From the NCBI GenBank assembly GCA_000004985.1, contig GG738851.1: a stretch of DNA of 64,000 nucleotides, one strand, 5' to 3'. The notes beneath the pieces were generated by a model. It had not been told where the DNA came from. It made no database searches and saw nothing but the letters and a program-made list of their open reading frames with translations. The position numbers were made by a program, and so were the translations under genes. The stretch is from Naegleria gruberi. Lineage: Eukaryota. This document shows, piece after piece, positions 2,054 through 42,582 of the stretch (position 1 is the first letter of the stretch; each line of letters opens with the position of its first letter).

Positions 2054-3217
2054 TTATTTCTTTTTCTTTGAGCTAGTGGATGCATCAGCAGCTTTTCTCT
2101 TTTTATCAGTTGCACTTTTTTTATCATCTTTCTTTGCAGGTGCTTTCTTTTTTGTGGTTGAGGATGAAGCAACTGGAGTAAAGAAACCATCAAGACGGGT
2201 TTGAGTTGGTTTACCTCTTGATGATTTGATTCTCTTAATATAACCTCTCACTCTTTCTTCATCAAATTGTTTTTCTTTCACTAAAAATTCTATTAATCCT
2301 TCTTCATCTGGTTCAGTCCATTTCATTGTGTCTACAAGTTCACTACTTGGAGTAACATCAGGATTCTTGAAAATGTTTCTAACTTCTTCGTATGGGAATT
2401 CACTTGGAGCTTGGTAATGTTTTCCTTCAATATTCTTCAATAAATTTTCAATATTTCCATATTTCTTAATCATGGCAAGAGCTTTCTTTGGTCCAATACC
2501 CTTAATTGAGTCAGTATAATCACATCCACATAAAATACAAATATCAATAAATTGATCAACTGTCACACCTAATCCTTCTATCACTTGTTTAAAGGTAAAT
2601 TCTTGAATTGGTTGTTTTCTTGCTTCAGAGAAAGTTAAATGTCTTGCCAAGACAGGAGTGGCATAAGTCAAAGCATCCATATCTTCAGTTGCAGTGGCAT
2701 ATACAAGACCACCTTTACAAAGTTCAGCACATTGAGCTTCAGCTTCACCTGGTGCTTCAACAACTGGAACACCCATCAATCTGAGCAATTTCTTTCCGTC
2801 ATTACTTTGTTCCTTAGTCATTCTAGTTGTTCTCTTATTCCACATGACCATCTTTTCTTCATCTCCTTCTTCTTGAGCAAGTGCAAATTGTTCCATAGCT
2901 TCTTTTTGTCTTTCTTTTCTCTTTTCCAATTCTCCTGATTTCAATTGTGGTGGTTTACCATCAAAAACATAACATGGTTTAATTCCGTATTCCAACATTT
3001 TGGTGGTTCTGGCAAGTAAACCTTGCAAGTGATTTGTAACTTCTCCATCTTTGTCTGTCAAATCCATACCAGTATTTTTCAAAGCAATCAAGAATTGATA
3101 CATGGCCATAGAAGCATCAATAGCAACTTTTCTACCAAAATAATTTTTCAATTGATCCTCTTTTACCGAATCTTTAGCTTCATCCAAGATGAGTTGCGAT
3201 AATCCTTTAATACCCAT
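2054..3217 (-). CDS. fen1: Flap endonuclease 1 (FEN-1)
   Basis: Starts MGIKGLSQLI...KVAIDASMAMYQFL, an XPG-N motif. The XPG-I region reads GVPVVEAPGEAEAQCAEL. The C-terminal PIP box is QTRLDGFF, followed by a K-rich tail. I take the start at the MGIKGL Met (3217), not the upstream ORF-track start at 3247. Confidence 0.9.
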   Translation of the reverse strand: MGIKGLSQLILDEAKDSVKEDQLKNYFGRKVAIDASMAMYQFLIALKNTGMDLTDKDGEVTNHLQGLLARTTKMLEYGIKPCYVFDGKPPQLKSGELEKRKERQKEAMEQFALAQEEGDEEKMVMWNKRTTRMTKEQSNDGKKLLRLMGVPVVEAPGEAEAQCAELCKGGLVYATATEDMDALTYATPVLARHLTFSEARKQPIQEFTFKQVIEGLGVTVDQFIDICILCGCDYTDSIKGIGPKKALAMIKKYGNIENLLKNIEGKHYQAPSEFPYEEVRNIFKNPDVTPSSELVDTMKWTEPDEEGLIEFLVKEKQFDEERVRGYIKRIKSSRGKPTQTRLDGFFTPVASSSTTKKKAPAKKDDKKSATDKKRKAADASTSSKKKK

Positions 3218-3548
3218 TTCTATATTATTTACAAAATAACCTAGCACTACTATTTAGATTTCTATATAATTTTAATTTTAACAACTTCTGATGATTTCTA
3301 TGCACGATTAGGTGATAGAATGATGTTGATTTTTTTTTTAAAGTAATTTTTTAAAATAACGTTCCTCATAAAAGTGGACGGCGGGAAAGTTCTCTTCCAG
3401 CCTCTTTGTTTTAGCTTGCAAGTTTCACTACAGAGGTTGAAGTTTCGAACATAAATGATCACAGTTTAATATTTTGTTATTGATTGAATAATAATATCAT
3501 GACCATTATATTACATTATAAATTAATATAATTATTTAAAATAAAAAA

Positions 3549-8423: not shown

Positions 8424-9226
8424 ATGTTCAAACAAATCATCAGCACAAAACATCAACATTTTTCATCTTTATCATTAACTAGTAATTTATTCCGATGCTA
8501 TGCGACACAAACCAAGAGTTCGGGACGATGGCTAGATAGACAGAGGAGAGACACTTTTGTTAAACAAGCAAAAGCACAAGGATATAGATCCCGAGCTGGT
8601 ATGTTTTCCATGTAATATTTTGATGATGGAATAAATTAAAGCCTTTAAATTATTGGAAATTGATGAGAAATGGGGAAAATTCTTGGAAAAATCAAAAGTA
8701 ATAATTGACCTTGGAGCTGCACCTGGAAGTTGGTCACAAGTGGCTGCCGAAAAGATGAAATCTGGAGGAAAATTAATAACAATTGATATTCTCGATATGG
8801 AACCTTTAAAGAGTCCACCCAATAAGAATTTACAAATTATTCAATTGAAAGGAAAATTTGAGGACAGTATTCCTCAATTGAGGAGTTATTTAAACGAGGG
8901 TGAATTTGCCGATTGTTTACTTTCTGATATGGCTCCAAATACGAGTGGAGTTAAATCTCTAGATCACAATAGAATTATATTTTTGTGTAATACTTCGATA
9001 GATTTTGCTTTTGAGGTGTTAAAACCAGGTGGTTGTATGTTAATGAAAGTATGTATTGAATTGATTTTGATTACAAATTTTCAAATAGATTTTTAGTGGA
9101 CCAGAGGATGCTACATTAAAAAATGATTTAAAACAATATTTTGAGAATGTCAATTTTGTGAAACCTGCATCATCCAGATCTGAATCAAGTGAAGTTTATG
9201 TATTAGCAGAGGGTTTTAAATTATAA
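8424..9226 (+). CDS. FtsJ/RrmJ-type rRNA 2'-O-methyltransferase (MRM2-like, probably mitochondrial), 3 exons: join(8424..8598,8642..9048,9089..9226)
   Basis: Exon 1 ends ...YRSRA|GTATGT. Exon 2 continues AFKLLEIDEKW...DLGAAPGSWSQV, the SAM-binding motif. Exon 2 ends ...CMLMK|GTATGT. Exon 3 is IFSGPEDATLK...VKPASSRSESSEVYVLAEGFKL*. The phases fit (1, 0). The N-terminus MFKQIISTKHQHFSSLSLTSNLFRCYATQTK looks like a mitochondrial presequence. Confidence 0.8.
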
Positions 9227-9263: not shown

Positions 9264-10718
9264 CTATTCCCAACTATGATCTTTTTTTGATACTATATTT
9301 TTAAATTTTGTAATATCGTCGTTATTTTTACGCATTCCTGGATTGTTTTGGAGGAACGCAGTTTTGATTTTAGAATTTCCAATTAATTTTACACCATCAT
9401 AGCTAATTCCACAATTTCTTGCATTAAGCTCTTCTAAGGTCATTCTACTTAATATTTCGGCTCCTTTGTCTCCTATTGGATTGCCAACAATATTCAGGTT
9501 GATCAAATGGGGAGATTTTTGGAGAGATTCGATATCTCCAGAGCAATTACACCTCGAAACATTGAGAATTTCAATGCTATTCAGTTTACCGATAAATTCT
9601 ATTCCTTTATCACATATTGGTTTACCACTAAAATCTAAATGTCTCAAGTTGTGTAAATTAGTTAAATGCGCTATTCCTTGGTGATTAATTTCCATACCTT
9701 GATTGGCAATATCGACCTGTCTTTCGTTAAATCTTCTACCGGTTCCTCTCTCCACAGAAAGATAGGTCAAATTTCTTAGGGAAGATATTAAGAACAATCC
9801 CTCATTTCCAATATAATTATCACCCACATTGAGATGTACTAGTTTTGTTAATGAAGTTAGATGGGTTATACAATCATTTGTGATATTGCAATCTTGGAGA
9901 TTAAGATATTTCAAATTTGTAAGCAATGCAATAACTTTCATTCCATCTCCTCCAATATTATTTTTACTCAAATCCAGTTTAGTCAATTTGAATAATTGCA
10001 AAAATTTTAAATTTACACTACTAATGTTGCATTGACTTGCATTGAGATATGTTAAATTACTCAATGATCCCACAGATGTAATTATCATATTAATATTTTT
10101 AGAACATTGAATATTTAACTTGGTTAATTGGGAAAATGTAGAAATTGACTTTGCTTTTTCCCAATCATTGGATGAATCTGTTGAAATTTCCAATTCTGTT
10201 AACTTGGATAATACACTCAACTTTTCAAAGTATTCAGGGGGAAGTCTTGGATTTGGAAATCTTACTACAAAACTTTCCAAGTTTTTCAATTTACAAATAG
10301 TACCCACACGGATATCAGTAAATTGTGATTTTTCGTTAGGATTTTCTAATATCTCTAAATGCTTCAAATGATTCATTCGAGGGATCAATACAACTGTATT
10401 GAATCTAACTTTAAGACTCGTAATATTGTTCAAATAATAAATACTACCATAAGAGAGTGGCAACTCTCTAAGTAATGTCAACTCTTTCAATGCGGAGAGG
10501 TGACGCAATGCTTTTAATTCATCCACTGTTGGACATTGACTTAATTGAATGCCGAATGGCGCAATAATAAATGTACTTTGTTGACGAGCAGTCAATTGAT
10601 CACGTTTTTTCATTCTTTTAATAAAAGTAGGTAACATTCCCCTTCTAATTCTGAGTTTAACTTGGGCAGTTGTAAACCATTGTTTTGATACATAGATACA
10701 ATTTTTAAAAACGATCAT
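9264..10718 (-). CDS. RNI-like leucine-rich-repeat protein
   Basis: The long ORF carries about 24-28 aa LRRs with an LxxLxLxxNxIxxxG pattern, for example LTKLDLSKNNIGGDGMKVIALLTNLKYLNLQDCNI and LNVGDNYIGNEGLFLI. The ORF-track start at 10739 is a GTG. The first ATG is at about 10718. Confidence 0.6.
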   Translation of the reverse strand: MIVFKNCIYVSKQWFTTAQVKLRIRRGMLPTFIKRMKKRDQLTARQQSTFIIAPFGIQLSQCPTVDELKALRHLSALKELTLLRELPLSYGSIYYLNNITSLKVRFNTVVLIPRMNHLKHLEILENPNEKSQFTDIRVGTICKLKNLESFVVRFPNPRLPPEYFEKLSVLSKLTELEISTDSSNDWEKAKSISTFSQLTKLNIQCSKNINMIITSVGSLSNLTYLNASQCNISSVNLKFLQLFKLTKLDLSKNNIGGDGMKVIALLTNLKYLNLQDCNITNDCITHLTSLTKLVHLNVGDNYIGNEGLFLISSLRNLTYLSVERGTGRRFNERQVDIANQGMEINHQGIAHLTNLHNLRHLDFSGKPICDKGIEFIGKLNSIEILNVSRCNCSGDIESLQKSPHLINLNIVGNPIGDKGAEILSRMTLEELNARNCGISYDGVKLIGNSKIKTAFLQNNPGMRKNNDDITKFKNIVSKKDHSWE

Positions 10719-10944
10719 CAATAAAAACGACTTTGTCACTCCTGGGTTGACTTGGTGTTTTTTTAAATAGTGAACGTAGTTGTCTTAACATTTTTTTGAT
10801 TGTGATTTAATGAATATTAAACGATATAATCGGTAGCCTAATACCTAATTGATTAAAATCAATCTTCGTAGTAGTATCGATGTAAATTGTAAAAAACATA
10901 ATGATGAAATATAAAAATTATTTGATAAACACTTTTAATAAAAA

Positions 10945-11529
10945 ATGTTACCATCACAAACACATCTCAGGAGGAAAAGATTTCATGCGTGGGAATATTT
11001 AGAACATGATTTTCCATCGGATATTCTTGATTTTACAAATGAACAATTACCTAGTGGATTTGAATATTTAAAACAAGATAATTATTTCTTTTCGGAATTT
11101 GATATGGCTTTTCCGAGTGGAATTAGTGATGAAAGTTTACCTAATGATATACCAGACCAACTATTTGATGGAATTAATTTATGTGAGGAATTGTGGGAAA
11201 ACACTCTTCTTTGTCAACTAAAGAAAAAGTATGATAAATTTTGTCAAAAGGATATTGCTGCCTTTTTGAAATGTAAATTAAAGAGAGACCATCAGATTAG
11301 AATTAGAGCGATTGAATTTGAAACATTCAAAATGACACAAGAAAGTCAAAGTGAAATTTCTAAACGAAAGGAGCTAGTAGATAAAAAGATTACTCAAGTT
11401 GAAAATCAATTGGCAAATTCAATCAAGCCACCTTATAGAGATGTCTGCCAAGAACAATTACATTTAAATGATTTACAATTTTTAGAATTGAGAAAATATT
11501 ACATTGAAAAGTCTCTGAAATCAGATTAG
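10945..11529 (+). CDS. Hypothetical protein (194 aa)
   Basis: A clean ORF with codon usage like its neighbours and no recognisable domain. It is transcribed divergently from the LRR gene, across a 200-bp promoter gap. Confidence 0.45.
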   Translation: MLPSQTHLRRKRFHAWEYLEHDFPSDILDFTNEQLPSGFEYLKQDNYFFSEFDMAFPSGISDESLPNDIPDQLFDGINLCEELWENTLLCQLKKKYDKFCQKDIAAFLKCKLKRDHQIRIRAIEFETFKMTQESQSEISKRKELVDKKITQVENQLANSIKPPYRDVCQEQLHLNDLQFLELRKYYIEKSLKSD

Positions 11530-11744: not shown

Positions 11745-12801
11745 ATGTTGTTAACATTACAAGAGCTTTACAAATATTTAAGGTGCAATAATGAAAAAGA
11801 CCAAGAATTAAAAAAAATGATCAAACTAAACAGTCAAAATTTTGAAAATCACCAATTCATTAATTCGGAGGAAATATTCAATAATAATATTAATAATATG
11901 GAAGAGAAAGCAATAAAGCTTGTGAAACTCGAACAAGAAATATTTTCAGATGATATTTGTTTTGAAATAATTTCAATGCTGGATGATTCGTGGTTTATTT
12001 TGAATAATTGTTCCTTGATTTCAAAACAATTCTTTAACGTGATCAAGGAACGTTCAAAACTTTTTATTATATTTAAAAAGAAATTTACAGAGAAACGAGT
12101 TGAATTATTCATGAAAAGTCGATTTTTAAACAGTATTGTTAATGTTAAATTTGCAGCAAAGTTGTCTGAAGCCAAAGAAAAACTCAAATTCATTGATATA
12201 ACTTGTGAAATGAAACAATTAACATCACTTAATATTTCTCACCATCTAATTGGTATAGAAGGAGCTAAATTCATAAGTAAAATGAAACAATTAACATCAC
12301 TTGATATTGATTACAATCATATTGGTGTTGAAGGAGCAATATTTATAAGTGAAATGAAACAATTAATATTACTTGATATTCGTAGCAATCTAATTGGTAT
12401 GGAAGGAGCCAAATTCATAAGTAAAATGAAACAATTAACATCACTTAATATTGATTACAATCATATTGGTGATGAAGGAGCAAATGAAACAATTGACATC
12501 GCTTGATATGTATGACAATCAAATTGGTGATGAAGGAGCCAAATACATTAGTGAAATGAAACAATTAACATCACTCAATATTTGTTTCAATCATATTGGT
12601 ATAGAAGGATCCAAATTGATAAGTGAAATGAAACAATTAATATTACTTGATATTAGTGGCAATCTAATTGGTGATGAAGGAGCAAAATATATCAGTGAAA
12701 TGAAACAATTGACATCACTTGATATTAGTGGCAATCAAATTGGTGATGAAGGAGCCAACTACATTAGTGAAATGAAACAATTGACATCACTAAGAAAATA
12801 A
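11745..12801 (+). CDS. F-box-like / RNI-type LRR protein; the coding frame is broken by a 14-nt deletion inside a tandem LRR array (possible pseudogene, allele, or assembly collapse)
   Basis: N-terminal F-box-like segment: DICFEIISMLDDSWFILNNCSLISKQFFNVI. Nine tandem 24-aa LRR units follow: MKQLTSLDI(S/D)xNxIGxEGAK(Y/F)ISE. The two ORFs 11745..12506 (frame 0) and 12451..12801 (frame 1) overlap. The switch lies where one 72-nt unit is only 58 nt long (about 12426-12484). Confidence 0.55.
12207..12801 (+). repeat. Coding tandem repeat with a 72-nt period (24-aa LRR unit), about 8.2 copies. One copy is truncated by 14 nt
   Basis: ATGAAACAATT(A/G)ACATCACTT recurs at 12210, 12282, 12354, 12426, 12484, 12556, 12628, 12700 and 12772. 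That is strict 72-nt spacing except for the 58-nt step between 12426 and 12484. Confidence 0.85.
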
Positions 12802-13237: not shown

Positions 13238-16200
13238 ATGAGTGTCCCTAACAACCCTGTTGGAGAAATCAACAATAAGGACTCTCTAATAAGTCAGTGT
13301 ATAGAATACATAACCAATGTTGGTGTGCTACTCATCGATTGTGATAGGAATGACTTGAAAATACAATTTAGAAGTTTGGAGAAGAGAGAAATAATTTCTA
13401 CATTCTTGTTTGAACCTTCTCAGTCTGCCTTATTTCTTCAAAAGGCTCCGAAGAGTGAATCAACACCAACTGACTTGGAAATCAAGTCCAATAGTAATGG
13501 TTAGTATTTAGATCAATGTAAATATCTAAATCAAATAATAGAAGTAAAATATGATTATTATTGTATGCTGGAGATGAATTACAGGGATAAATCGGATGGA
13601 ATTTGCTTCATCAAAGGAGATAAGAAGGTTTTTACGGAACAATTATTGGAAGGAAAGAAATTGTCATCATTATTACAAGTGGTGGAAATCAAAAACGATC
13701 TAAATCCTTTTGAATTATTGAACACTTATATTTGTAGTGGATTTGAACCTTATTTTTCATCTTTCGAAAAAACTAAAAGAAATCAAAGAGACTTCAAGAC
13801 ATCAGTAATTTCCGATATTACGGAAAGTTTAAAATCTTTAAAACTTGCATTAAATCAAGTACAACAAGCCTATCAAATTCCCGAGGTGGACGTATTAAGT
13901 TTTGTTCATCAAGATGTAAAGGATATGGTTAAACAAGGAGCAACTTTGGATTCATTGAGTGACAAAATTACCAAGTTGAAGAATGAAACCAAATTAATTG
14001 AAGAAATTAGCAAAATGTCATTGAATTGTGCACACGAAATTAGAGGATTGACACAAAAAGCAGAGTAAGTTGAATATTAGAATTTAATTGTTTAATTTAT
14101 AATATTTAAAAAGAGAAATGAACATTCAGAGTGTTGCCCAAGAAATTAATTATTGGCACTCTTTGGAAAGAACTTTGTCAAATGTTGATCAACAATTGAA
14201 GAGCCAGGAAATAGTATTTACCTTGAATATTTTGAAAAATACAAGAAGAATGCAAGCTTTTACAGCTTTAAACACAACAGGAATAGAAGATGTACTGCAA
14301 AGAGCTAAAGAGTGTAACTCTCTTTTAGCAGATCTACCAATCAATGAATTACTCTCTGCTAAGGATATTGAGAAAATGACAGCAACAATTGCCCAAATGT
14401 TCACTCAGCTCAACAAATCAAAAATATATCACAATAAGGATTCATACCCTATGGAGCGTGCTGTTAAATTAGTAGAGGCTCTGTCAAGGGACGTGTCAGA
14501 AAAATTATTGGAAATTCTAAAATCATCACAAATAATGTTTCTCAATTTTGAAGATTTTGATAGAATAACGAAAAACTGTATTGATTTGTTTGCTACACTG
14601 GATTCGGATATTAAAACATTTACCAAGATTGCAAGTGATGTTGCTAGAAAGAAGCAAAAGACTGCTGTGGAAATGAGTAAATTAGAACATCTTCATTTAC
14701 AAAAAAGAATCGAGGAAATTAGAAATTTCAGAGTGCAACATGAGGAACTTAGAGTAGTTATTGAAAAAGTACTACCAACATCAAATTTCGATGTTAGAGA
14801 AACAAGTGCTTTGGATCAAGTTAATAAGGCTTTTGAAGAATTTAGAACTCTGGAAAATAAGGTATTTGACACTTCATTTGAAGGCCAACAAACTTGGAAG
14901 AGTGCAATTAAATCTTACAATGAAAAAATAGACAAAGCAGAGACTCAAATTACAAGAAAACTCACAGATCAATTAGGTATTGCAAAGAGTGCCAGTGAAA
15001 TGTTTAGAATTTTCTCCAAATTCAATCCTCTTTTCTACAAGCCAAGGATTAGAAGTGCAATTCAACAATATCAAGAGCAATTAGTAGAAAGAGTAAAGGT
15101 CGATATAACCAAACTAGAAGAAAAGTTCAAACAACACTACCCATACTCTGAAACCGAAAAGATGAGTAAGCTTAGAGATTTACCATCTGTATCAGGTTTC
15201 ATTATTTGGGCAAGGCAGATTGAAAAGCAATTAATTGCATACATGAAAAGAGTAGATGACGTTTTTGGAAATGGCTGGGATAGAATGAAAATTTTAAGAA
15301 AAAAGGATTGTCTTTGGACATTGAATGAATCTCTAGCAGAATTTATGGGAGTTCCTTTCTCTAAAATACAATCTAAAATAAGCAGCCATCCAGTTCTCTC
15401 GTTACTAACCAAACCAGAAACTACTGGTACCGCATTAGCTTTAGCTTTCCTTGAACTTGTATATACAGACTCAGAAACCCAATGGAAAGTTATGGCATCA
15501 GAAAGCAGAGAAATACTAAAGAGAGAAGTCGAAAAAACAAGACTTTCTGGTGATATTATTCAACATTGCAGTGAAATTTTGAAAGAAGAAAAGATTGGTG
15601 GTAGACATATCGAAGAAAACAATTTAAGGAAGGAAGGAGAGAAATTTAAGAACAAACTTCAAGGAAATATTTTCACTGTTCTAGAAAGATGGAATAATGA
15701 AGTCTTTGAGAAAATGTTTAAATGGAAAATATTCCACCTCTCAAATGATAGTCAGGTGTCTGTAAAGGGATTTATATTCGAAATTGTAAAAAATAAGGAA
15801 GAAAAATCCGATCTAAGAGTTAATTTTGATAAGGAAATAAGTACTTTAATCAAGGAAGTAAGAAATCTGTCTTCCCTTGATATGATTTCTAGAGTCAAAT
15901 CAGAAATTAAGATTGTAGCTATGGAGGCTTCTCACATACATCCTATAGCTGTATCTCTGTCAGAAAGTATTAAGATATTCAAGAAAGTCATGAAGGAAGT
16001 TGAGGATAGACCTTACGTTAAACCTTTAGCCTCAAAGTATTTGAACAGTATTTATGAAAAGCTTTCAGAAGGATTCAAACTATCTTGGAAGAGCACAAAA
16101 CTTGACAAATACGCCAAAGAACTGTACGAGGACGTCACAAAGTTTTCAAATCATATTCATGATTTACTTTTGGATGTGGATAAAATCTTCAAATTCTTGG

Positions 16201-19200
16201 ATACTCTCAAAACATGTAAATTACACAAGACTAGCTTTGAAGCTATTCTTTCAGATATTCAAAAAGTTATAGACTCTCTCGCTCTTACCGACGAATGTAG
16301 CAATCTCAAATCATGGGTAAATAGCATTAATACTCATATTGAGGAGATTTTATTGGCTAGATTAAACGAATTGTTGAAATTATGGCTTGCTGAATACAAT
16401 TCGATGACTGTTTCAACAGACTTGGGTAAACAGGAGGAAGAATTCGAGGAAGGTTATGAAAAACGTACTCCTCAATCAAAGGAATCTCCAGAAACAGAGG
16501 AAATCAAATCGATATTTGGACAACTTAGTATTTCCAAGTTTAAAGTTGATATCAAGCTTGTGAATCGATCGATGAAAGTTATACCCTCAGTTCATAGAGC
16601 TAAGTCATACTGGGCCTCAAGATTTAGTTTATGTTTGTCATGGATATGTGACTTGCATATTATTCAAAGTGACAGATATGATCAAGCTTTTACTTTAGAG
16701 AAGAGAAAAACTTACAAATATCTTCTTGAAAAAGTACCTCAAGCACTATTACAAACAGTATTCAATCTAATCTCTGCATCAACAAGGAGAGCTGACAAAT
16801 ACGTACAACAATGGTTACAATATCAAGCAATGTGGGAAATGGACATTAACTATGTAATGTCAGAAATCAGTTCCTTGGATTCTTGGGTTCAAATACTCAG
16901 AGATTTGTCTAAGTCTAAATTCATATCAGATAGTGATTCTTATTCCAAAGATTTTGGATCTATTGTTATTAATTACAGAGATGTTTATGAGAAGATTAAC
17001 ATGAAATATGATGATACGTTAAGACAAATGCTCTCCAAATTCTGCACAGAGCTTAAGGAATCTATGAAATCAACATTTGTTATTCTTTCCCAAGAGAGAA
17101 ATGAAGTAGAAACTTCCCGAGTTGAAAGAAGCACACAAGATGCTATCAAATTCCTAACTAAAATAAGATCTCTCAAAAAACAATTCCACACTTGGGAGTC
17201 AAATATCAATCTCTTTAAGGAAGGAGAAAAATTGATTCAAGAGTACAATTGTAAATTCCCAGAGGGATGGATTTTTGCCGATAACGTTGAAGGTGAATGG
17301 AATGCACTCAACCAGATAGTCAAACAAAAGAATGAATCTGTCAAATCCCTAAAGGATCAAATCACAAAGAACTTACTTAGTGACGAAAAGAAGTTATTTA
17401 CATATATTGGTCAATTTGTAGAGGAGTGGAAAACAAAGAGACCTTTGGAAGGAACTATTGAACCTTCTGAAGCTCTTAAGCAATTAGGAGCTCTAGAAGG
17501 AAAGCTCTCGCAACTAAAACAAGAATATAAGAGAATTAGAAAGAGTAGGGAAGCTTTAGATATGGAAGTTATCAAAATGGAGAAATTAGATTCATACGAA
17601 GAGGAGTTGAAGAATCTCAAAGACGTATGGGTCTCTATACAAAGTATTTGGGCAGAGCTCAGCGATCTACGAGAAATTCCGTTCAATAGTGTTATTTGCA
17701 AGACTGTTCAAAATAGACTTACAGAATTGGTAGATAAAATCAAGAAGTTCAATCCTTGGATGCTCACCTATGCATCAGTTGAAAATATTTTATCACAAGT
17801 TGAATTGCATTTGAAAGAAATGGCTATATTGAGATGCCTTAAGGAAGAAGGAATGAAAGAACGACACTGGATTGACCTAAGAAAACAAATTGGTACCAAC
17901 TGGGTACTAACAGAACTCACATTAGGAGATATTTGGAACAGCAAAATACTTGAACATGAACGAGTTATTAGATCAGTCCTAGAAAAAGCAAGAGGAGAAC
18001 TTGGTCTGGAAGTGTACTTGAATCAAGTTAGAGAATTATGGGCAGCGATGAAGTTCGAAGTTGCTAGCCACAATAACAAGGGTTATCTGATAAAATCCTG
18101 GGAAGATATAACTGGGCATATTTTGGATCACCTAAAGACGTTGTCTTCAATGCGGGCTTCTCCATTCTTTAAAACCTTTGAAGATGAATGTGTGTCTTTG
18201 GAAAGCAAGATTAACAGAATGAGAATAATGTGCGATCTATTCATGGATGTGCAAAGAGTTTGGGTTTACTTGGAAGGAGTATTCTCGAGTAACGTAGACA
18301 TTAGATATCAACTCCCAAAAGAAACTCAAAGATTCCAATCTGTTGAGCATGAATTTGTAACCCTTATGAGAAAAGTTCACTCTAATCCACTCTGTCTTGA
18401 AGTTGTAAATATTCCAAATATCACAAGCTCATTAGAAAGATTAACTGAACAACTTTCTAAAATTCAAAAGTCATTGGGTGAATATTTGGAAAAGCAAAGA
18501 GCAGCTTTCCCAAGATTTTACTTTGTTGGTGATGAAGATTTATTGGAAATTATTGGCAATTCAAATGACATTGAAAAATTACAAAAACATTTGAAGAAGA
18601 TGTTTGCGGGTATTTCTACTCTAGAGTTTACAAACTCGACGGTAACTTCTATGGTATCTAAAGAAGGTGAGATTGTTAAATTCCAAAATTCCTTAGAGTT
18701 AGATCCAAAAGAATCAATCCAGACATTTTTAGTAAATCTGGAGAAAGAAATGAGATGCACTCTTTCCTATCTCTTGGGAGAGGCATTCCAAAAATTCCAC
18801 ACCATCGTTGAAAACGAAAGCGGCTTGAATAATACAGACTTAGAAGAATGGATAAAGACATACCCAGCCCAGATAATTACAACTTCTATTCAAATTTGGT
18901 GGACCAAAGTTACAGAAGACCAGCTTTCTAATGAGTTCGATTTACAATCTGTACTGTTCAATGTGATGAGCCTTTTGGAAAAACTTGCAGAAATGTCCTT
19001 ATCCGCAAAGGATAATGTATTAACTCGAAAGAAATTTGAACACCTAATCACAGAACTAGTACACCAACGGGACGTACTCAAACAACTAATCTCTCAACAA
19101 GTTAGAGGAGCCAAGGATTTTTCTTGGCTTTATAACATGAGATTCTACTGGAATGCAAATTGCACAGACCCAGCAGAAAGACTTAATATTTCGGTGGCAA

Positions 19201-22200
19201 ATGCTAACTTTATTTACGGATTTGAATACTTGGGTGTTATTGAAAAACTAGTCCAAACACCTCTCACAGACAAGTGTTACTTAGCTTTAACGCAGGCTTT
19301 ACATTCTAGATTTGGTGGTTCTCCATTCGGTCCTGCAGGTACAGGTAAAACCGAAACTGTTAAAGCTTTGGGAGCACAACTTGGAAGATTTGTTTTAGTT
19401 TTCAATTGTGATGAAACTTTTGATTTCAAGGCCATGGGAAGAATATTCCTTGGTCTTTGTCAATGTGGATCTTGGGGATGTTTTGATGAGTTCAACAGAT
19501 TGAACGAAAAGATGATGTCTGCTGTATCTCAACAAATCCAAACAATTCAAATTGCCCTCAGAGATAGAAAAACTAGCATTGAGCTCATTGGAAGACAATG
19601 CTCTGTTCATGACAACACTGGTATTTTCATAACAATGAATCCGGGTTATGCTGGAAGATCTAACCTTCCTGATAACTTGAAGCAATTATTTAGAAATATT
19701 GCTATGGTTAAACCTGACAAGGAGTTGATTGCTCAAGTAATTCTATACTCACAAGGTTTCAAACTAGCAGAAGAACTTTCAAAGAAGGTAGTGCTTTTCT
19801 TTGATCTATGTAGAGACAAATTATCACACCAATCCCATTATGATTTTGGTTTGAGAGCTTTGAAGAGTGTACTTGTCAATGCTGGTTATTTGAAAAGAAA
19901 CTTTTCATCTACAAACATTGAGTCAAAGCATCTTATCCAGAGTATTCAAGATACTATAATTCCAAAACTTGTTGGTGATGACGTTTCACAACTCAAGTTC
20001 TTAATTTCCAATCTCTTCCCCGGTCTTGAAACTGTCAGCAATCCTCTCACTGAACTGAGACAATACATTTTCGAAATATGCAATTTGTATTCATATTTAG
20101 CAGACGAAAGATGGGTAGAGAAGATTGTTCAACTTTACAATATTCAAAACTTGCATCATGGTTTTATTTGTGTGGGTCCTGCAGCCAGTGGAAAAAGTTC
20201 TTGTTGGAAGATTTTGCTAAAGGCTTTAGAGAAACTAGATGGTATTAAAGGTAGATCTTATATAATAGATCCAAAGGCTATAACCAAAGATGAATTATAT
20301 GGTAGATTAGACTCTACTACAAGAGAATGGAGTGACGGTGTATTTACACAAATATTGAGAAAGATTGTCGACAACTCCCGAGGAGAAAGCACTCAAAGAC
20401 ACTGGATAATATTTGATGGTGATGTAGATCCAGAGTGGGTTGAAAACCTCAACAGTGTTCTTGATGACAATAAGCTTTTCACTCTTCCAAATGGTGAAAG
20501 ATTAGCCTTACCAGAGAATGTGAGAATTATGTTTGAAACTCAAGATTTAAAGTATGCAACCTTGGCCACAGTAAGTCGTTGTGGTATGGTATTCTTCAAC
20601 GATTCTATTTTATCCCACAAAATGATAATTCACCACTATTTGGATAAGTTATCAAGGGAAGGCTCAGATAATCCAAAATTATTGTTACAAAGAAAAATTG
20701 CCTCCATTCTCAGACCTTTCTTACTTGAAAGTGACTTGATTCAACAAATTGCAGACTTTGCACAAAAACAAGAACATATCATGGACTTTTCAATTATGAG
20801 GTCTCTTGATACAACATTTGCCCTCATAAATAAGGGAATCCAAACTGTATTTGAATACAATTGCAATCACTTGGACTTCCCTATCAGTGATGAATCACTA
20901 AAGAGATTTATAACCAACAAAATGGTTTTCTCCTTGTTATGGGGTTTCACTAGCTCATCCAACAATGCTAATAGAAAGAAATTTTCTCAATTCTTGACAT
21001 CTACTATTAGAAATGTGGATTTACCTAGGGATGTCAGTTTAACTGAATTTGAAGTCAGTATCCATGATGGAGAATTTTCTCCTTGGATAAGAAGAGTTCC
21101 AGAAGTAACTGTTGATTCAAATAAGATATTTGGAAACTCAATCATTCCAACTTTGGATACTCTTAGACATGATGATTTATTAGAGTCATGGATTCAAGAT
21201 CACAAGTCAGCAATTTTATGTGGTCCTCCTGGAAGTGGTAAAAGTATGATCATGACATCTGTCCTCAAATCCTTGACAAATTATGAGTGTTGTTACTTGA
21301 ACTTTTCTAGTGCATCAACTCCATCATTAATTCTCAAAACATTTGAACAATATGGTACTGTAAAGAATACATCAGAAGGTCTAGTACTTCAACCAAATCA
21401 AAATGGAAAGTGGCTAGTTGTCTTTTGTGACGAAATTAACTTGCCTTCCAATGACAATTATGGAACTCAGAGAGTTATTTCATTTATAAGGCAATTAGTA
21501 GAACACGGAGGATATTGGAGACCATCAGATCTATCATGGATAAAGTTGGAGAGAATAATGTTTGTTGGGTCTTGCAATCCACCAACTGATTCAGGAAGAA
21601 CACCAATGAGCCCTCGATTCTTAAGACATTGTCCATTGTTATTGGTTGATTTCCCAGAGGAAGAATCATTGAAACAAATCTATGGAACCTTTTCGAAGGC
21701 TCTTGTTAAAAACCATCCAAACTTAGCAAATATTCCAGAAGCCATCACTAACACCATGGTTGAATTTTATTCCAAATCTCAACAACATTTTACTGTTGAA
21801 AAGCAACCACATTATATTTACAGTCCAAGAGAACTTAGTAGATGGATAAGAGCTCTCCAAGAAGGTATAAAAGGTATTGCATACTTAACCTCAGAGGAAT
21901 TGGTAAGATTATTAGTGCATGAAGGATTGAGAATTTTCAGTGATAGACTTGTTCTTGATGAAGAAAAGGAATGGACTGATCAAACTCTGGATCAAACAAT
22001 TAGAAAATATTTTATTAATGTAAATGATTCATGCCTACACAGACCTATTCTATTCAGTAACTGGATTAATAAGTCTTACGTATCTGTTGATAGGGAAGAT
22101 TTGAGAAAATTTGTTGAATATAAGCTCAAAGCATTCTCAGATGAAGAATTGGATGTAAATCTTGTTATATTTGACTCTGTATTGGAACATATTTTAAGAA

Positions 22201-25200
22201 TTGATAGAGTTCTAAAGCAACCTCTTGGACATTTATTATTATGTGGTGAAAGTGGCAGTGGTAAAACTACTCTTTCAAGATTCGTTGCTTGGATGAATGA
22301 TTTCAGTGTATTCCAAATCAAGGCACACAGAAATTATAGTATCAAAGACTTTGAAGAAGATTTACGTAAGGTAATGAGAAGAGCAGGTTGTAAAGATGAA
22401 AAAATTTGCTTTATATTTGATGAATCAAATGTGCTCAAACCAAGCTTCTTGGAATACATGAACTCATTGTTGGCAAGTGGTGAAATACCAGGTTTATTTG
22501 AAGGAGATGAATATTCCAATTTGATAAGCATTTGTAAAGACTCAGCATCAACCAATAATGTACTCAATCTGGATACAGATGACGAAGTTTATCAATGGTT
22601 CATATCTCAAGTCCAAAAGAATCTACATATCGTTTTCACAATCAATCCAGCAAACGCAGACTTTAAGTCAAGGGCATCAACCTCCCCTGCTCTTTTCAAT
22701 AGATGTGTTATTGATTGGTTTGGAGGTTGGCCTTACCAAGGATTGTTCCAAGTTGCCACCGAATATACAATTCCTATTGTTAGAGAACTTACAAAAGATT
22801 CTAAAATGCAAATACCTGAATCACTTGTTGAAATTCATAACGTTGTTTGTAGACTTAGTTCAAATACTGATAAGAAGATTGGCAAAAAGGGTTTCATCTC
22901 TCCTAGACACTATCTAGACTTTATCAAACATCTCGTTCATGTACAAAAAGAAAAGCAACAAGAAATCAAAGAACAACAAAATCACATTGAACGCGGTTTG
23001 AAAAAGTTGAAAGAAACAGAAGGATATGTTTTCACTCTCCAACAACAACTCAAAGTTCAAGAACAGAAACTCTCAGAAAAGAATATTCAATCAAAGGAAA
23101 AGTTGGATCAAATCGTTGAAAACCAAAAGGTAGCCGAAAACAGAAAGCAAGAATTACTTATTCTTTCTAAGCAACTCGAAGAAAAGAGCGTAGGTATCAA
23201 TAGAAGAAAAGAAGAAAGTAGAACACAATTATCCCTTGTTCAACCTCTTCTCAAGAAGGCACAAGATGAAGTTAAAAAGATTGAACCAAAACATATACAA
23301 GAATTAAGAATATTGAATAATCCACCCATCACAGTTAAGAAAACTTTAGAAGCTGTTACTATTCTTCTTAGTCCAAATGAATGGGAAAAGTCTGCACCTT
23401 CTTGGGCTGATATCAGAAAAATAATAAGCTCTTTAGATTTCATTACTAATATCCGTACATTCGACCCAGAAACAGTAGTTATACCAAAGAAGTTAAGAAT
23501 GAGAATACAACAAACCTATCTAGATGACCCAAGTTTGGAAGAATCTAAAGTCTTCAATGCCAGTAAGGCTTGTGGTCCAATGATTTTATGGGTAACCTCA
23601 TGTGTTAAGTTTGCTGATATTGTCGAAAAAATAGAACCACTAAAAGCAGAAGTTAATGCTCTAGAGAAGGAAAGCTTAACATTAATCGATCAAGAAAAAG
23701 AGTTGAACAAGATTGTTTATTACCTCAAACAAAAAATTGACAGCTTTACTGATGAATATACTTCCCTTATGAAAGAAACAAAATCCATAGAAATGGAAAT
23801 GAACTCAGTTAAGAATAAGGTTAACAGATCAATGTCTTTAATTGAGAGTTTATCAAACGAAGCCTCCAGATGGTCTTCTCAAATAGATACTTTCAGAACC
23901 CAAATGGAAACAATTATTGGAGATTCTATTATTTCAGCTGCTTTCTTGTCATATTGTGGTTTCTTTGATGAACAAAATAGAAGAAATTTGTTGTTCATTT
24001 GGACCTCTGTACTTTCAAAGTACAATATTTACACTAGAGATAATCTTTCTCTTGTAGATTTCTTATCTACTCCACAAAAGAGATTGCAGTGGGAGACTTG
24101 TAAACTTCCTACAGATGATATTTGTCTCGAGAATGCTGTTATTTTAGAAAGATTTAATAGATTCCCTCTGATAATAGACCCAACAGGACAGGCCATAGAA
24201 TTTATATCCAACTTTTACAGAACAAAGAATCTTGTAAAGACCAGTTTTACAGATGAAAATTTCTTAAAGAGTCTTGAGAACTCCCTTAGATTTGGTACAC
24301 CAATTATGGTATCAGATGCTGAGAATGTAGATCCTATTTTAAATCCAATACTCAATCGTGAAGTTAAAAAGATAGCAGGAAGAAATATTGTTACACTAGG
24401 AAATCAAGATATCGATCTTTCTCCAACATTCCAGTTAATTTTAGTAACAAGAGACTCAACTCACCAATTTGAACCTGACTTATCAAGCAGAGTTACATTT
24501 GTAAACTTTTCTGTTACTCCTTCCAGTTTGAGAGGACAATGTCTTTCAGCTATCCTTCAACATGAGAAACCAGAAATTGATATCCAGAGATCAGAGCAAA
24601 TCAAGTTGCAAGGAGAATACAAGGTTAAACTCAGATCTCTTGAAGAATCACTTCTAGCATCATTAAGCGAAGCTAAAGGCTCTATTTTAGAAAATGAGTC
24701 TTTAATATCAACTTTAGAGAGTCTCAAAGAAAAATCAAAAGAAATTGAAACCAAAAAGAAAGAGTCTGAGAAGGTTATGGAAACACTAAGCACTATTAGT
24801 GAACTTTATGCACCATTAGCCTCCTTTTGTTCAAGCATTTACTTTACATTAACACAATTATCTGAACTTCATTACCTTTATATTTTCTCACTCTCTCTAT
24901 TTATGAGAACTCTCCATGAAGTCCTAATTATGCGGGAGAAAGAAAACTCAAATCGTGTTGAATTTCTAGTTAAGGCTTTATTTTATGAAATTTATAAGAG
25001 AATCTCTAGGAGTTTATTATATATGGATAGACTTGCTTTTGCCATTAAATTAGCTCACATCAAAATCGGCGACAACTTGATAGATCCAGAAGAAAAAAGG
25101 TTATTCCTTGAAGACTTAGTTGGTTCCTCAGGAATTACCATAGAAGAAAATGGGTTCAAATTTCCTTCTCTACAAAAGCATATGATAGAAAAAATGTCAT

Positions 25201-27281
25201 TAATTCCTGGCTTCCAAAATCTTGAAAAGCATGTTGAAGACAATTTTGAAGAATGGAAAGTCTTCTTTGAAGATGGAAATCATATTCCAACATGTTATCC
25301 TAAATCTGAAAATGAAATTCAAAACTCGTTTAGAGAAATGATGTTATTCAAGATATTCAAACCTGATCATTTAGTTAACCAAATGGAGAGATTTATTGGA
25401 TCTGTTTTTGGAAATGATTTCTTACATGGAAGGGAAACAAGTATCGATACTATTGTTGATAAGGAAGTTGATTGTTTTACTCCTTTAATATTGGCATCAG
25501 TACCTGGTCATGATGCATCAGTGTACATTGATGATTTGGTTAAAACAAATCAAAAGACTTGCTCTTCTGTTGCCATGGGTTCATCTGAATCATATGACCA
25601 GGCCGACAAAGCCATCAATATTGCTATCAAATCAGGATCATGGGTATTATTGAAGAATGTACATCTTTCACCTAAATATCTCTACAAACTTGAAAAAAAG
25701 CTACATTCTTTGAAATGCGATAATAGTATTAACAAGTCATTCAGATTGTTCTTGAGCAATGAGATTCATCCAAATATCAATCTTAATCTTCTCAGAATGT
25801 CATATACACTTGTATTTGAACCAGCCACTGGTATTAAGAGCTGTCTTACACAAACATTCTGCAACCTTTCCAAGGTACGTGTTGAAAAGCCACCAGTTGA
25901 AAGAACCAGACTCTATTTATTGGTGTCATGGCTTCATGCAGTTCTTCAGGAACGTTTACGTTATCCTCCTATTGGTTGGAGTAAGAAGTATGAATTTAAT
26001 CACACAGATTTGAAATCAGCATACGACACCATAGACAAGTGGGTTGATTTGTACTCTGAAGGTCAAACAAACACCAAACCAGAGGCATTACCATGGAAAG
26101 CCCTTCATTCTTTACTTGGAGAATCAATTTATGGTGGAAAGATAGACAATGAATTTGATATGGTTATTTTGAAGTCACTATTGGATGAATTAATGACTCC
26201 TGAAAGCTATAATCTTACATTTACATTACCAGGTATTGATTCAACATTCACAGGAAACAAGTTTGAGAACTTCCAATCATGGATCGAATCACTTCCAAAT
26301 CAACAACCACAATGGCTCGGCTTGCCAACAAATATTAATGAGTTAGTTAATATTAACAAGGCAAACTTGACAATCAGCCAAACTAACAAAATTAAGGATT
26401 TATCACATGATAATACAATTGAAGATCTTAAATCCATGCTGGCTAACACAACCCATGAAAAGATTAGTAATATTGAAGGAATGGAATCTACTATCAACGA
26501 ATGGACAGACATGCTTCCAACTAATTTCGAGTTCGAAATGAAGGAATCAAGTCAACTTGTTCAAGAAAACATTCCTGTATTCAAATTCTTCCAAAGAGAA
26601 TTGAAGACCATTGCATCAGTGCTTGCATTAGTTAAAACAGATTTATTGAATTTGACCAATATCAACAATGGAGAAGCCAAATATACCAACTACTATAGAC
26701 ACCTGATAGATAAATTGTCAAAAGGAAATGTTCCAAAGTCTTGGGGCCATAGCTATCCTTTCCTTGAAAATATTACTGTAAATATGTGGATTTTGGACCT
26801 TGTTAAGAGATTAGACCACCTTTTAGAAGTCAAGACCAATATTGAAAAGTTTGGACGCTTTTCCAATAACAATGAATCGATTTGGTTTGGAGGATTACTG
26901 TCACCTGAGGCATTCTTAACTGCAACCCGTGAAGAAACATCTAACATGCAAAAGATTCCACTTGAGAAGCTACAACTTTGCTTTGTTGATAGAAATCACC
27001 AAAACTCATTCACATTAGAAGGTTTATCAATTCAAAGTGCCAAGTTTATTGATGGTAGAGTATGCATTGGAAAAGAATTGAATTCAATCATTACTCCAAT
27101 TTCTCTTGCATGGGTTAGCTCTGAAATGTTAACTGAAGACATTTCTTCTATCAAAATACCTGTATATCAAAACTCTGCAAGAAAAAAGATCATTTGCTCT
27201 CTTTCTGTCAAGTATGATGAAGAAAATATCTCCAAGAATATAATCTATCAACGTGGTGTAGCTATTTTGGCAAAGGAATAA
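13238..27281 (+). CDS. dhcA: Cytoplasmic dynein 1 heavy chain, about 4649 aa: join(13238..13499,13545..14064,14114..27281)
   Basis: The 13.2-kb single exon encodes four P-loops: AAA1 GPAGTGKTETVKALG, AAA2 GPAASGKSSCWKIL, AAA3 GPPGSGKSMIMTSV and AAA4 GESGSGKTTLSRFVA. It also encodes the stalk coiled coils with an MTBD and the AAA5/6 region. Two 5' mini-exons were found by splice logic. ORF 13565..14068 ends in GA|GTAAGT, and an AG acceptor at 14113 restores the frame (..TQKAEEMNIQS..). ORF 13238..13504 ends with its TAG inside G|GTTAGT, and acceptor AG at 13543-44 gives ..SNSNVKYDYYCMLEM... The total length matches D. discoideum DhcA (4730 aa). Confidence 0.85.
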
Positions 27282-35789: not shown

Positions 35790-37412
35790 TTAATTTATTT
35801 TCCATCTTGTAATTTTACCATTACTCTGTAAAACAAATAAATATTTTGAATCTCTTGAAAATATACACTCTCTCACTAACTCTGATGAATGATGTAGAAT
35901 AGCACATGGTCTTGAATAGAATGATAATCCAACATGTTCAAATGAAAATAATTCAACACGTCCATCATGTAATGGTCTAGCTAAATATTTATCACTAATT
36001 GCCATTTTTAACCACCAAAAATATGATTGACTTCCTTTAAATCTGTGAATAATTGAAATTTCATCCTCCTCTGAATTTACATTAAATCCACTTTGTTCAG
36101 TAACACTATCAGGTTTCCAAACAATAACTGAATCACCTGGATCATTAGTAGATGATTCAGCACTATTTGTTTTTGATAAAACTACATCTCCCAAAAATAG
36201 ACATGAATCCACATATCCTCTATGATATAAATAAACACTTCCAGATTTAATAATTGGTAATTTAAGTGTTTGAATATCTGTATTACATGTACAATTTTTA
36301 GTAAATATTTCAATCTTTTCATTATTTAAATTTAAATTATTAATATTCAAATTATTATTATTATTTAAATTATTATTATTATTAATATTTAAATTATTAT
36401 TATTTAAATTATTATTATTTAAATTATTATTATTATTTAAATTATTTAAATTATTATTTTTATAATTTTCTAATTGATAATATCTTTTTTGAAAATTAAT
36501 ATAATTATAAACATGATAATCAATTTCAAATATTCTACAAGTATTATCCATAGCACCACTAACAAAATAATTTCCATTTTGATGAAATGATAAACTAATA
36601 ATTCCAGCTAAATGACTTTGAAAAATTGCAACAGTTTCAAAATTTAAATTTAAATCCCATAAACGAATTGAATGATCATTACTTCCAGTTAATACTAAAC
36701 CATTCATTTTAGGATGAAAACAAATACAATTAACACTATTTCCATGTCCATTTAAATTTCCAATTAAATTAGTTTTAACTAAATTTTCATTTGAAATTTC
36801 AATTTCATATAAAGAAACAAATTGTGCAGATCCACACACTGCTAAAATATATTTATCATTCCATTTAGACCATCTAATACAATAATATTCAATTTGTTTT
36901 TGTTCATTTTCAATAATATGAATAATTTTACTCTTTTCATTTTCAAATTTCCAAATATAAATTGAACTTCCTTGAACATTGGCATAAATATTTAAATATT
37001 TAATATGCATATCAATTGAATAGGCTTCTAATGGTGAATATTTACCATATCTAACACATTCATCAAATTTAAATTTATTTTCAAATCCTAAACTTGTTTC
37101 AATAGTAGTAGTAGTATTATGGAAATTATTATTATTAGATGATGATGAATTATTTGATGAATTATTTGATGAATTATTAGAATACCATTCTTGTTGATAA
37201 TCTTCAATTTTATCATAATGTTTAATAGTAGTAGTAGTAGTAGTAGTAATTATTGATGATGATGAATTATTTGCATTCCGATGATTAATTTCATCATCAA
37301 TATCACTACCACTACTACTATTACTATCATTGTCATTTTGTTGTTGTTGTGATTGTTTACGACGTTGTCGAGTGGTGGAACGATTTAATGGCGTTCTTGT
37401 TGGTTTTTTCAT
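35790..37412 (-). CDS. WD40-repeat protein with poly-N/S N-terminal tracts and an internal N/L-rich insert
   Basis: WD motifs include GHGNSVNCICFHP...SIRLWDL and CRIFEIDYH. The C-terminus reads GKITRWKIN. A long NNLNNLNNNNNLNN low-complexity insertion is present. Confidence 0.75.
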   Translation of the reverse strand: MKKPTRTPLNRSTTRQRRKQSQQQQNDNDSNSSSGSDIDDEINHRNANNSSSSIITTTTTTTIKHYDKIEDYQQEWYSNNSSNNSSNNSSSSNNNNFHNTTTTIETSLGFENKFKFDECVRYGKYSPLEAYSIDMHIKYLNIYANVQGSSIYIWKFENEKSKIIHIIENEQKQIEYYCIRWSKWNDKYILAVCGSAQFVSLYEIEISNENLVKTNLIGNLNGHGNSVNCICFHPKMNGLVLTGSNDHSIRLWDLNLNFETVAIFQSHLAGIISLSFHQNGNYFVSGAMDNTCRIFEIDYHVYNYINFQKRYYQLENYKNNNLNNLNNNNNLNNNNLNNNNLNINNNNNLNNNNNLNINNLNLNNEKIEIFTKNCTCNTDIQTLKLPIIKSGSVYLYHRGYVDSCLFLGDVVLSKTNSAESSTNDPGDSVIVWKPDSVTEQSGFNVNSEEDEISIIHRFKGSQSYFWWLKMAISDKYLARPLHDGRVELFSFEHVGLSFYSRPCAILHHSSELVRECIFSRDSKYLFVLQSNGKITRWKIN

Positions 37413-37887
37413 TTTTTTGTAAAATGTTCTTTTTTAAATAATTTAAACTTTTTTACATAAATGGAAGGAATTTGATGTTAAATATTATGAATTTATTTAA
37501 TACAGAAAGATATTATTTAATAATAATTATTTACAATAATTTTATCATTTTGAAAAATTGAATTGTTTATATGCTATTTTTTTACAATTTTTAATAATTT
37601 TTCATTATTAATTCTTTCAAAAAAGGCAACTGGTAATATTTTAGATTTTTATACTTATTATAGTCTTGTTGAAACGTTATTGGTTTTTGTAAAATTACTC
37701 TCGTTTCTAATTTGGTGCAATAAACTAGGCCTTTAGACCCAGAATAATTTTTTATTAATTTAAATAAATATAAATATGAACACAATTCAATCATTAATGT
37801 TTTGTAAAGTATAGTTATTATTTTAACTACATTACAAAACATTAATGATTGAATCGGCTCACATTAGTCTCAACTATCAGCTGAAAT

Positions 37888-38565
37888 TTAATCAGCTGAT
37901 GGTATAAAATTGAGACAAATTGCATTAGGAATAGTTTTAGATGTTTTTTCAATGAGTGATTGTTTGTTATTGTAAACTTTCCATGAATTTGACCTTGTGT
38001 CTAGTAATACATTATTTTCAGTAGCACAAATTTGAGTAAACTTTTCAGTGTGATGAGTTAGTTTTCTTAATTCTTGATTAAATCCAATATAGAAAGTATC
38101 ATCATTTAGAAATGAATGAACATTAGTATTGTAAATCTGTGGAGGTATCATATCAGTTACTATGAGTTTGTTTAAACCAGTTTCGAATAGAATTACCAAG
38201 TGACCAATCCCTTCAGTCTTGTTATAATCACAATGTTTAAAGAGTGGGAATAAACTGACTGTTCTCTGTGATGTATTGAAGAAGAATTCCATTGGAAATG
38301 TATCATTACCAACAACAAGATTCGAATCTAATTTCTTCTCAAAATATTCGAAATCCTCCAAATTACTTAAAGGAATTTCAATAGGATTAGAAATATCATT
38401 ACAAACCAACAACCTTCTTTGATCAATTTCTACTGAACAATAAGATTTAAAATGTTCACATGCGAAACCTTTTGGAATGGTTATTTGTGGTTGAGTAGTT
38501 TGACCTTGTCCAGTCTCTGACCAATAAAATTCGAGATCAAATTCATAACTGTCATTAGAAGACAT
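37888..38565 (-). CDS. Hypothetical protein (225 aa)
   Basis: A clean ORF with typical codon usage and no recognisable motif. Confidence 0.5.
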   Translation of the reverse strand: MSSNDSYEFDLEFYWSETGQGQTTQPQITIPKGFACEHFKSYCSVEIDQRRLLVCNDISNPIEIPLSNLEDFEYFEKKLDSNLVVGNDTFPMEFFFNTSQRTVSLFPLFKHCDYNKTEGIGHLVILFETGLNKLIVTDMIPPQIYNTNVHSFLNDDTFYIGFNQELRKLTHHTEKFTQICATENNVLLDTRSNSWKVYNNKQSLIEKTSKTIPNAICLNFIPSAD

Positions 38566-42564: not shown

Positions 42565-42582
42565 AACTTTATTCGAACCAAT

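Follow-up and report, generated by a model that had tools for sequence, protein, structure and literature searches.

A 14-nt deletion interrupts the leucine-rich repeat array of an unannotated F-box-like gene in Naegleria gruberi

Introduction

When a tandem repeat array switches reading frame halfway along its length, has the gene that contains it suffered a real lesion and, if so, what is left of that gene? This question is raised by a locus of the free-living amoeba Naegleria gruberi (strain NEG-M) that encodes leucine-rich repeats (LRRs). The locus occupies positions 11745–12801 of a stretch of 64,000 nucleotides (nt) of contig GG738851.1 (assembly GCA_000004985.1), which we refer to as the window. 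A preliminary description of the window had noticed nine copies of a 24-amino-acid (aa) LRR unit, one of them shortened, and had proposed a pseudogenising lesion, a polymorphic allele or an assembly collapse. The explanation that we favour, with a probability of about 0.72, is a young 14-bp deletion in an unannotated F-box-like/LRR gene, as part of ordinary birth-and-death turnover. The features of the locus are listed below with the evidence used to place them; U1 to U8 designate the successive repeat units.

11745–11816 (+): in-frame upstream extension of 24 codons, to which no paralog aligns
11817–12506 (+): present reading frame, 229 aa plus TGA (tblastn of close paralogs, paralog N-termini, translation)
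11940–12062 (+): F-box-like motif, IFSDDICFEIISMLDDSWFILNNCSLISKQFFNVIKERSKL (Pfam on family N-termini; AlphaFold2 helices at residues 45–79)
12208–12801 (+): LRR array composed of U1–U3 (72 nt), U4 (58 nt), U5–U8 (72 nt) and a partial unit of 32 nt (anchor positions; Tandem Repeats Finder, TRF; Pfam LRR_6)
12424–12481 (+): short unit U4, without its last 14 nt and 97% identical to U2
12504–12506 (+): premature TGA in the original frame (translation)
12482–12801 (+): out-of-frame remnant made of four 72-nt LRR units that look intact, then the terminal MKQLTSLRK and, at 12799–12801, the original TAA (frame 1 open throughout)

Results

A short unit shifts the reading frame of the array

The array has a period of 72 nt (24 aa). 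Its anchor, AAATGAAACAATT, starts at positions 12208, 12280, 12352, 12424, 12482, 12554, 12626, 12698 and 12770, and the 21-mer core of the array occurs nine times where 0.02 occurrences would be expected by chance. The nine copies first described correspond to these nine anchors, but only seven of them open a full 72-nt unit (U1–U3 and U5–U8); the others are the 58-nt U4 and the terminal partial unit of 32 nt, which carries the stop codon of the array. We confirmed that U4 is missing the final 14 nt of the unit: its end, ...GATGAAGGAGC, runs straight into the anchor of U5, with the junction GGAGC/AAATG at 12481/12482. The flanking units are exactly 72 nt long and U4 is the sole irregularity in the array. 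This loss moves the reading frame from the open reading frame (ORF) at 11745–12506 (frame 0, ORF1) to that at 12451–12801 (frame 1, ORF2), and both ORFs were recovered as initially reported. Past the junction, the upstream frame reads ...GDEGANETIDIA and terminates at the TGA, 23 nt after the deletion.

Both frames encode LRRs. The Pfam model LRR_6 matches ORF1 (E = 2e-14) and ORF2 (E = 9e-21), and the tandem units present the LxxLxLxxN core at a regular spacing of 24 aa, within the 20–30 residues that define LRR units. At the DNA level, we did not find the near-identity that had been attributed to the copies. The array shows 73% matches at period 72 according to TRF, which also lists a period of 58 with 87% matches and one of 274 with 85%. 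Pairwise identity between full units ranges from 76 to 92% (about 82% on average), and only U2 and U4 are near-identical to each other (56 of 58 positions, 97%), with 2 differences at the 18 variable columns relative to a mean of 8.8 across all pairs.

Start codon and product of the truncated frame

When all the close paralogs were searched against the window with tblastn, the alignments began at 11817, and the paralog N-termini MSKRNRQDFENHQF align with the window sequence MIKLNSQNFENHQF. Because the paralog alignments start there, we assigned the start codon to the ATG at 11817 rather than to position 11745, and the upstream extension is probably a 5' leader rather than coding sequence. The window copy starts with MIKLNSQ (11817–11837); five of six N. 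gruberi paralogs start with MSKRNRQ, MRKRNRQ, MSKRKRQ or MSKRSRI. The window copy has lost a conserved cluster of basic residues at its N-terminus, which may be a signal for nuclear targeting.

The 229-aa product begins with its F-box-like domain, after which come three full LRR units; it ends with 19 aa of the fourth unit and an out-of-frame tail, NETIDIA. It possesses four unit anchors, the same number as the annotated proteins P0006, P0008 and P0010 (P numbers designate the proteins retrieved in our searches), and the paralogs range from four to seven. The AlphaFold2 model of this product (alignment of 20 rows) reaches a mean predicted local distance difference test score (pLDDT) of 79, and more than 90 across the LRRs. 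It presents three helices at residues 45–79, followed by a regular strand-helix solenoid, and the foreign tail is modelled as an extension of the last helix. A Foldseek search against the PDB returned the LRR domain of RipG4 first, then NOD2 and ribonuclease inhibitor (RI), with FBXL3, TIR1 and Skp2 also listed. The alternation of strands and helices and the matches to RI, NOD2 and RipG4 are those of an LRR solenoid fold.

The N-terminal domain is called F-box-like here on the basis of this model, of the fold matches and of its relatives: among 14 family N-termini, Pfam F-box-like was matched by seven and Pfam F-box by six (best E = 5e-6). A profile of the domain found nothing among PDB sequences. 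Members of the subfamily would most likely act as substrate-recognition subunits of Skp1–cullin–F-box (SCF)-type ubiquitin ligases.

The locus belongs to a close subfamily of N. gruberi proteins

We searched for homologs with a repaired protein in which both frames were joined by a five-residue filler. The search gave 457 matches in all at E ≤ 1e-5, many of them to N. gruberi "predicted proteins", and at least 20 annotated N. gruberi proteins were found among the 120 matches listed. Many of the N. gruberi matches carry a looser motif, F.DDI.xEIxSF....I..CxLVSKQW.NVI, and the wider family is therefore large. With the N-terminal domain alone as query, P0006 was the sole match despite at least six paralogs with this domain, a number that reflects the word-index limit of the search and is not a genome-wide count.

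Six N. gruberi proteins (P0002–P0006 and P0008), as well as P0010 from L001, a Naegleria-like environmental contig (ENA ERZ929261), have their whole architecture in common with the window gene. They share the N-terminus MSKRNRQDFENHQFINSEEIF..., the domain ...EIFSDDxCFEIISMxDDSWFILxNCxLISKQFFNVIKERSKL...KFTEKRxELxMKSQFxNSIVNV... and the 24-residue unit MKQLTSL.I..N.IG.EG.K.ISE. Over 98 ungapped columns, the N-terminal domain of the window copy is 72–81% identical to that of P0002–P0006 and P0008, which places it in their subfamily. The MKQLTSL-type 24-aa units followed by a C-terminus soon after the final MKQLTSL, also typical of this subfamily, are reached only through the frame at 12482–12801, and the peptide LDMYDNQIGDEGAK is specific to the units downstream of the deletion. 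No protein more than 72% identical to either ORF was found among the matches listed, and both ORFs, in five start variants, were absent by exact look-up from a collection of 15 billion proteins. The sequence comparisons thus identify this locus, which has no gene model, as an unannotated seventh member of the close N. gruberi subfamily. We found no publication on this Naegleria F-box-like/LRR family in the literature covered, which excluded the original genome paper.

Two other members present unusual ends. P0002 ends in the peptide ITIVLVMKEPSS, and its C-terminus, ...AKFIITIVLVMKEPSS, corresponds to a +1-frame reading of an LRR unit, comparable to LITIILVMKEQ and to LVWKEPNS plus stop in the window. 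This +1-frame signature was found only in P0002 among 128 retrieved proteins, and P0002 may hold a similar out-of-frame lesion or represent a wrong gene model. In L001, the array (2484–2890) is interrupted within unit five, at the very position of the ATG of an amino-acid-transporter-like gene that follows; the ORF past the break runs on in a foreign frame, and the gene looks like a 3'-truncated copy. P0002 and L001 hint that copies with damage may be no rarity in this family.

More distant relatives were also detected. A metagenome scan with the N-terminal profile yielded a single locus, at 3001–3300 of the marine scaffold TARA_B100000686_G_scaffold351310_1 (L002; TARA Oceans), which encodes a distant relative of the F-box-like domain (31% identity). 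The Naegleria array is also matched by the bacterial LRR proteins P0009, P0018, P0090, P0095 and P0098 (E down to 2e-68; 25–42% identity), whose sources include Solimicrobium, Pandoraea, Achromobacter, an alphaproteobacterium and a Legionellaceae metagenome-assembled genome. These strong matches would be in keeping with an exchange of eukaryote-like LRR effectors between amoebae and the bacteria associated with them.

The lesion is likely young

We then considered how far the gene has decayed. Across the 98 ungapped columns of the N-terminal domain, the window copy presents 0 private substitutions, relative to 1–5 in six of the seven paralogs and 0 in P0003. Downstream of the deletion, units U5–U8 retain 16, 17, 15 and 16 of 17 strongly conserved positions (64 of 68 in total; paralog mean 14.9 ± 1.5). 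Frame 1 contains no stop after 12436 and remains open for 105 codons up to the C-terminus MKQLTSLRK, which is of the same type as in P0004 and P0006. In this frame, 5.8% of the possible substitutions would create a stop, and with about 0.16 substitutions per site the chance of observing none would be down to 5%. The open frame and the conserved positions indicate that nothing else in the gene has decayed, and the lesion is therefore likely young.

The same observations bear on whether the gene is a pseudogene. A disabling lesion is present, as the 14-nt deletion and the TGA cost the product four full units and the terminal partial unit. The marks of neutral decay (more stops or indels, lost conserved residues) were not found, and the gene contains no second lesion. 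A real lesion is the best supported of the three options raised at the outset, but its pseudogenising nature is not established because the truncated ORF encodes a protein of the size of the annotated paralogs, and this remaining protein may still work. With no other decay, the locus would therefore represent a pseudogene of very recent origin or else an allele that is truncated but usable.

The repeat units follow a family-wide consensus

The similarity among the units had been taken to suggest recent expansion or ongoing homogenisation of the array. The gene on L001 (2086–2877) offers a comparison, as it is built on the same unit of 72 nt, down to the GAAATGAAACAATTAACATCACTT... wording. We observed that the window units are 83.3% identical among themselves and 81.8% identical to the L001 units; outside the repeats, identity between the N-terminal domains of these genes is 81.9%. 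The units are thus not clearly more alike within the array than between loci, the U2/U4 pair apart, and, because the L001 units are equally similar to those of the window, we find no array-specific homogenisation. Rather than a product of recent local expansion, the unit sequence is a family-wide consensus kept by motif selection in an AT-biased genome. The U2/U4 pair is the sole trace of recent in-register duplication or conversion in the array.

Genomic neighborhood

Two annotated genes lie upstream of the locus:

9264–10739 (−): neighbouring LRR gene, P0121, which covers 9267–10613 (100% identity to P0121)
10945–11529 (+): intervening DUF7803 gene, XP_002681055.1 / NAEGRDRAFT_63586 (exact sequence look-up; Pfam DUF7803, E = 7e-12)

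Both genes match annotated N. gruberi proteins exactly and lie on the same 693,645-bp contig, which identifies the window as part of the NEG-M reference assembly. The LRR ORF on the opposite strand is located 1,005 nt upstream of the array ORF, in agreement with the second LRR gene first noted about 1 kb away. These two genes do not form the small, dynamic LRR cluster that had been envisaged: the neighbour is only 26% identical to the repaired protein, NAEGRDRAFT_63586, which is unrelated to the LRR genes, stands between them, and tblastn with the paralogs revealed no further LRR locus in the 64-kb window. A tandem cluster of close LRR paralogs was rejected on these grounds. The neighbour belongs, as a distant relative, to the broad F-box-like/LRR superfamily of the array gene. 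Its ORF extends upstream of the start ATG of P0121 at 10613 and includes, at 10677–10715 (−), the sequence VFKNCIYVSKQWF, which weakly matches the latter half of the F-box-like motif; an N-terminal exon may be absent from the P0121 model, or the F-box may have disappeared from this copy.

Other genes of the window were identified along the way. A cytoplasmic-dynein-type heavy chain is encoded at 13238–27281 (+), with an uninterrupted ORF of 4,387 codons (14118–27281); the short ORFs at 13238–13504 and 13565–14068 look like 5' exons, and the short introns that would join them have the donors GTTAGT and GTAAGT. An FtsJ/MRM2-like ribosomal RNA methyltransferase gene is found at 8424–9096 (+) (Pfam FtsJ, E = 2e-26), with a 43-nt intron at 8599–8641 (GTATGT...AAAG) whose removal joins the exons and restores ...SRAAFKLLEIDEKW. 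The window is AT-rich (30% GC) and contains one gap of 50 N at 38917–38966. Blocks of very low GC-content (18–26%, relative to about 30–35% elsewhere) are located at 36001–38000 and 42001–50000; these blocks and the gap are unrelated to the array lesion.

Discussion

A probable young deletion and its consequences

Our results are best explained by a simple sequence of events. The ancestral copy would have carried eight full units followed by a partial one, and its array would thereby have exceeded that of every other subfamily member compared. A 14-bp deletion would then have taken the end of unit 4, shifted the frame and created the TGA 23 nt downstream. The outcome would be a 229-aa protein with an F-box-like domain, four LRR units and a foreign tail of seven residues, and the remaining four and a half units would persist as an untranslated relic. 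A simple loss of 14 nt from a U2-like unit would be the most economical origin of U4. Depending on the ancestral tail, the junction presents a microhomology of 2 nt (AA; U2-like tail), 3 nt (U7-like tail) or 0 nt (other tails).

Several points weigh against this explanation. Slippage is a plausible mechanism for the deletion, but the microhomology amounts to at most 2–3 nt and exists for some ancestral tails only. The open downstream frame, taken by itself, bounds the age of the lesion only loosely. The loss of the basic MSKRNR motif could mean that constraint on this copy had already been relaxed earlier. In addition, the window copy itself has no Pfam F-box match at E ≤ 1, and the sequence of the locus comes from a single reference assembly.

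Alternative explanations

The deletion could be carried by one haplotype of NEG-M, the other haplotype being intact with eight full units and the terminal partial unit, and the consensus would have taken the deleted form. This scenario is a sub-case of a young deletion rather than a contradiction of it, and the complete lack of downstream decay is in keeping with a very young and still segregating variant. The passage of PMC9928731 that cites Fritz-Laylin 2010 reports that N. gruberi NEG-M is heterozygous and that Naegleria are mainly heterozygous diploids. We regard a heterozygous allele as possible, although the odds are clearly below even. An artefact of sequencing, cloning or assembly appears considerably less likely. 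Under this hypothesis, the genome contains a normal 72-nt unit and 14 nt were lost from plasmid clones or during consensus building. Tandem repeats are indeed error-prone, the locus has no gene model or independent sequence in the protein look-ups, and the window contains a 50-N scaffold gap, though 26 kb away. However, the assembly collapse proposed in the preliminary description is unlikely because a collapse deletes whole periods (72 or 144 nt), and a loss of 14 nt is out of register with the 72-nt period; joining reads wrongly at this point would require an overlap of merely 2–3 nt. The array spans 594 nt, which is less than the length of a typical Sanger read, and its flanking units are exactly 72 nt long. 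The NEG-M reference assembly is based on Sanger sequencing (PMC9928731, Table 1). We infer that the deletion is biological.

Two further hypotheses concern the array itself. Rather than from a simple deletion, U4 might result from an out-of-register recombination or from the duplication of part of a unit (58, 130 or 274 nt), an event in which two different arrays may have been joined. The TRF periods of 58 and 274 are compatible with such an event, as is the difference in flavour between the two halves of the array (AKFIS in U1–U4, AKYIS in U5–U8). However, identities at the predicted offsets remain at background (88% for U4/U5, 78% for U3/U5, 86% for U4/U6 and 79–88% for U1–U4 relative to U5–U8), U4 is closest to U2 (97%), from which it is offset in register by 144 nt, and the best paralog matches of the two halves are not clearly different. 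With offset identities of 78–88%, partial-unit duplication was rejected as the origin of U4, and we consider an event of this kind slightly less probable even than an artefact. It is also conceivable that a short intron, or +1 ribosomal frameshifting at the TGA, restores the frame and that the full array is expressed. We enumerated every GT..AG pair joining both frames, and the complete list of short candidates whose length leaves a remainder of 1 when divided by 3 comprises 12469–12535, 12469–12538, 12421–12535 and 12421–12538. Their donors are GTGATG or GTAAAA, as opposed to GTATGT, GTTAGT and GTAAGT in the three inferable introns of the window, and the candidate sites are motifs found in every unit. 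Splicing of the two candidates at 12469, which we worked out by hand, leaves a defective unit of 20–21 aa rather than 24 aa. A spliced-out segment, which the preliminary description had named as a way to restore the frame, was rejected as none of the pairs offers credible splice sites. A +1 shift at GCU-UGA-U is formally possible and would give access to the downstream frame, but it leaves a garbled unit and no sensible product, and the RNA downstream of the stop presents no unusual structure (z = −0.64). Recoding was rejected as well, and we know of no such recoding in Naegleria. Restoration of the frame by either route is highly improbable.

A broader interpretation is that out-of-frame micro-deletions constitute a recurrent route to array-length change in this family, and that truncated four-unit forms are functional alleles, possibly segregating. 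This idea arises because P0002 ends in a shifted frame, L001 is cut after four units and the annotated paralogs present 4–7 anchors; we hold it to be speculative and rather unlikely.

A young deletion in an unannotated gene matters mostly for annotation: the N. gruberi reference lacks a model at this locus, which deserves an entry as a frameshifted F-box-like/LRR family member that may be functional in its truncated form. If both forms are present across strains or haplotypes, the locus would provide a small and handy marker by which birth-and-death could be seen at work in a free-living amoeba, within a lineage-specific family whose members are putative ubiquitin-ligase adaptors.

Comparison with known systems

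The closest relatives of the window gene are the subfamily members P0002–P0006 and P0008, which share its N-terminal domain, its 24-aa unit and a C-terminus just past the final MKQLTSL. These proteins are 215–305 aa long, contain 4–7 unit anchors and are uncharacterised (NCBI/UniProt). Unlike them, the window copy is unannotated, carries the 14-nt frameshift, starts with MIKLNSQ and would have had nine anchors.

In its predicted architecture, a three-helix F-box-like motif N-terminal to an LRR solenoid, the gene resembles FBXL-type SCF receptors (Skp2, FBXL3, TIR1), and Foldseek matched the structures 4i6j_B (FBXL3), 2p1n_B (TIR1) and 1fs2_A (Skp2). It differs from these receptors by the lack of a significant F-box sequence match in the window copy and by its 24-aa unit; the LRRs of animal FBXL proteins are roughly 26 aa long and contain cysteine. 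Similarities were also found with RI-like and NLR-type (NOD-like receptor) LRRs: LRR_6 is the best repeat model, and the top fold matches include structures of NOD2, NLRP and ribonuclease inhibitor. In contrast, the window unit is 24 aa long and the gene has no NACHT or other NLR domain; classical RI-type repeats measure 28–29 aa. Finally, the best structural match is the LRR domain of RipG4 (9j7j; E = 1.5e-5; 23% identity), a member of the GALA/RipG proteins of Ralstonia, with which the window gene also shares a 24-residue unit. The IGDEGA core of the window unit resembles what we take to be the GALA-LRR consensus, a likeness that serves as a lead only. The GALA/RipG proteins are bacterial type III effectors, whereas the gene described here is a chromosomal gene of a eukaryote.

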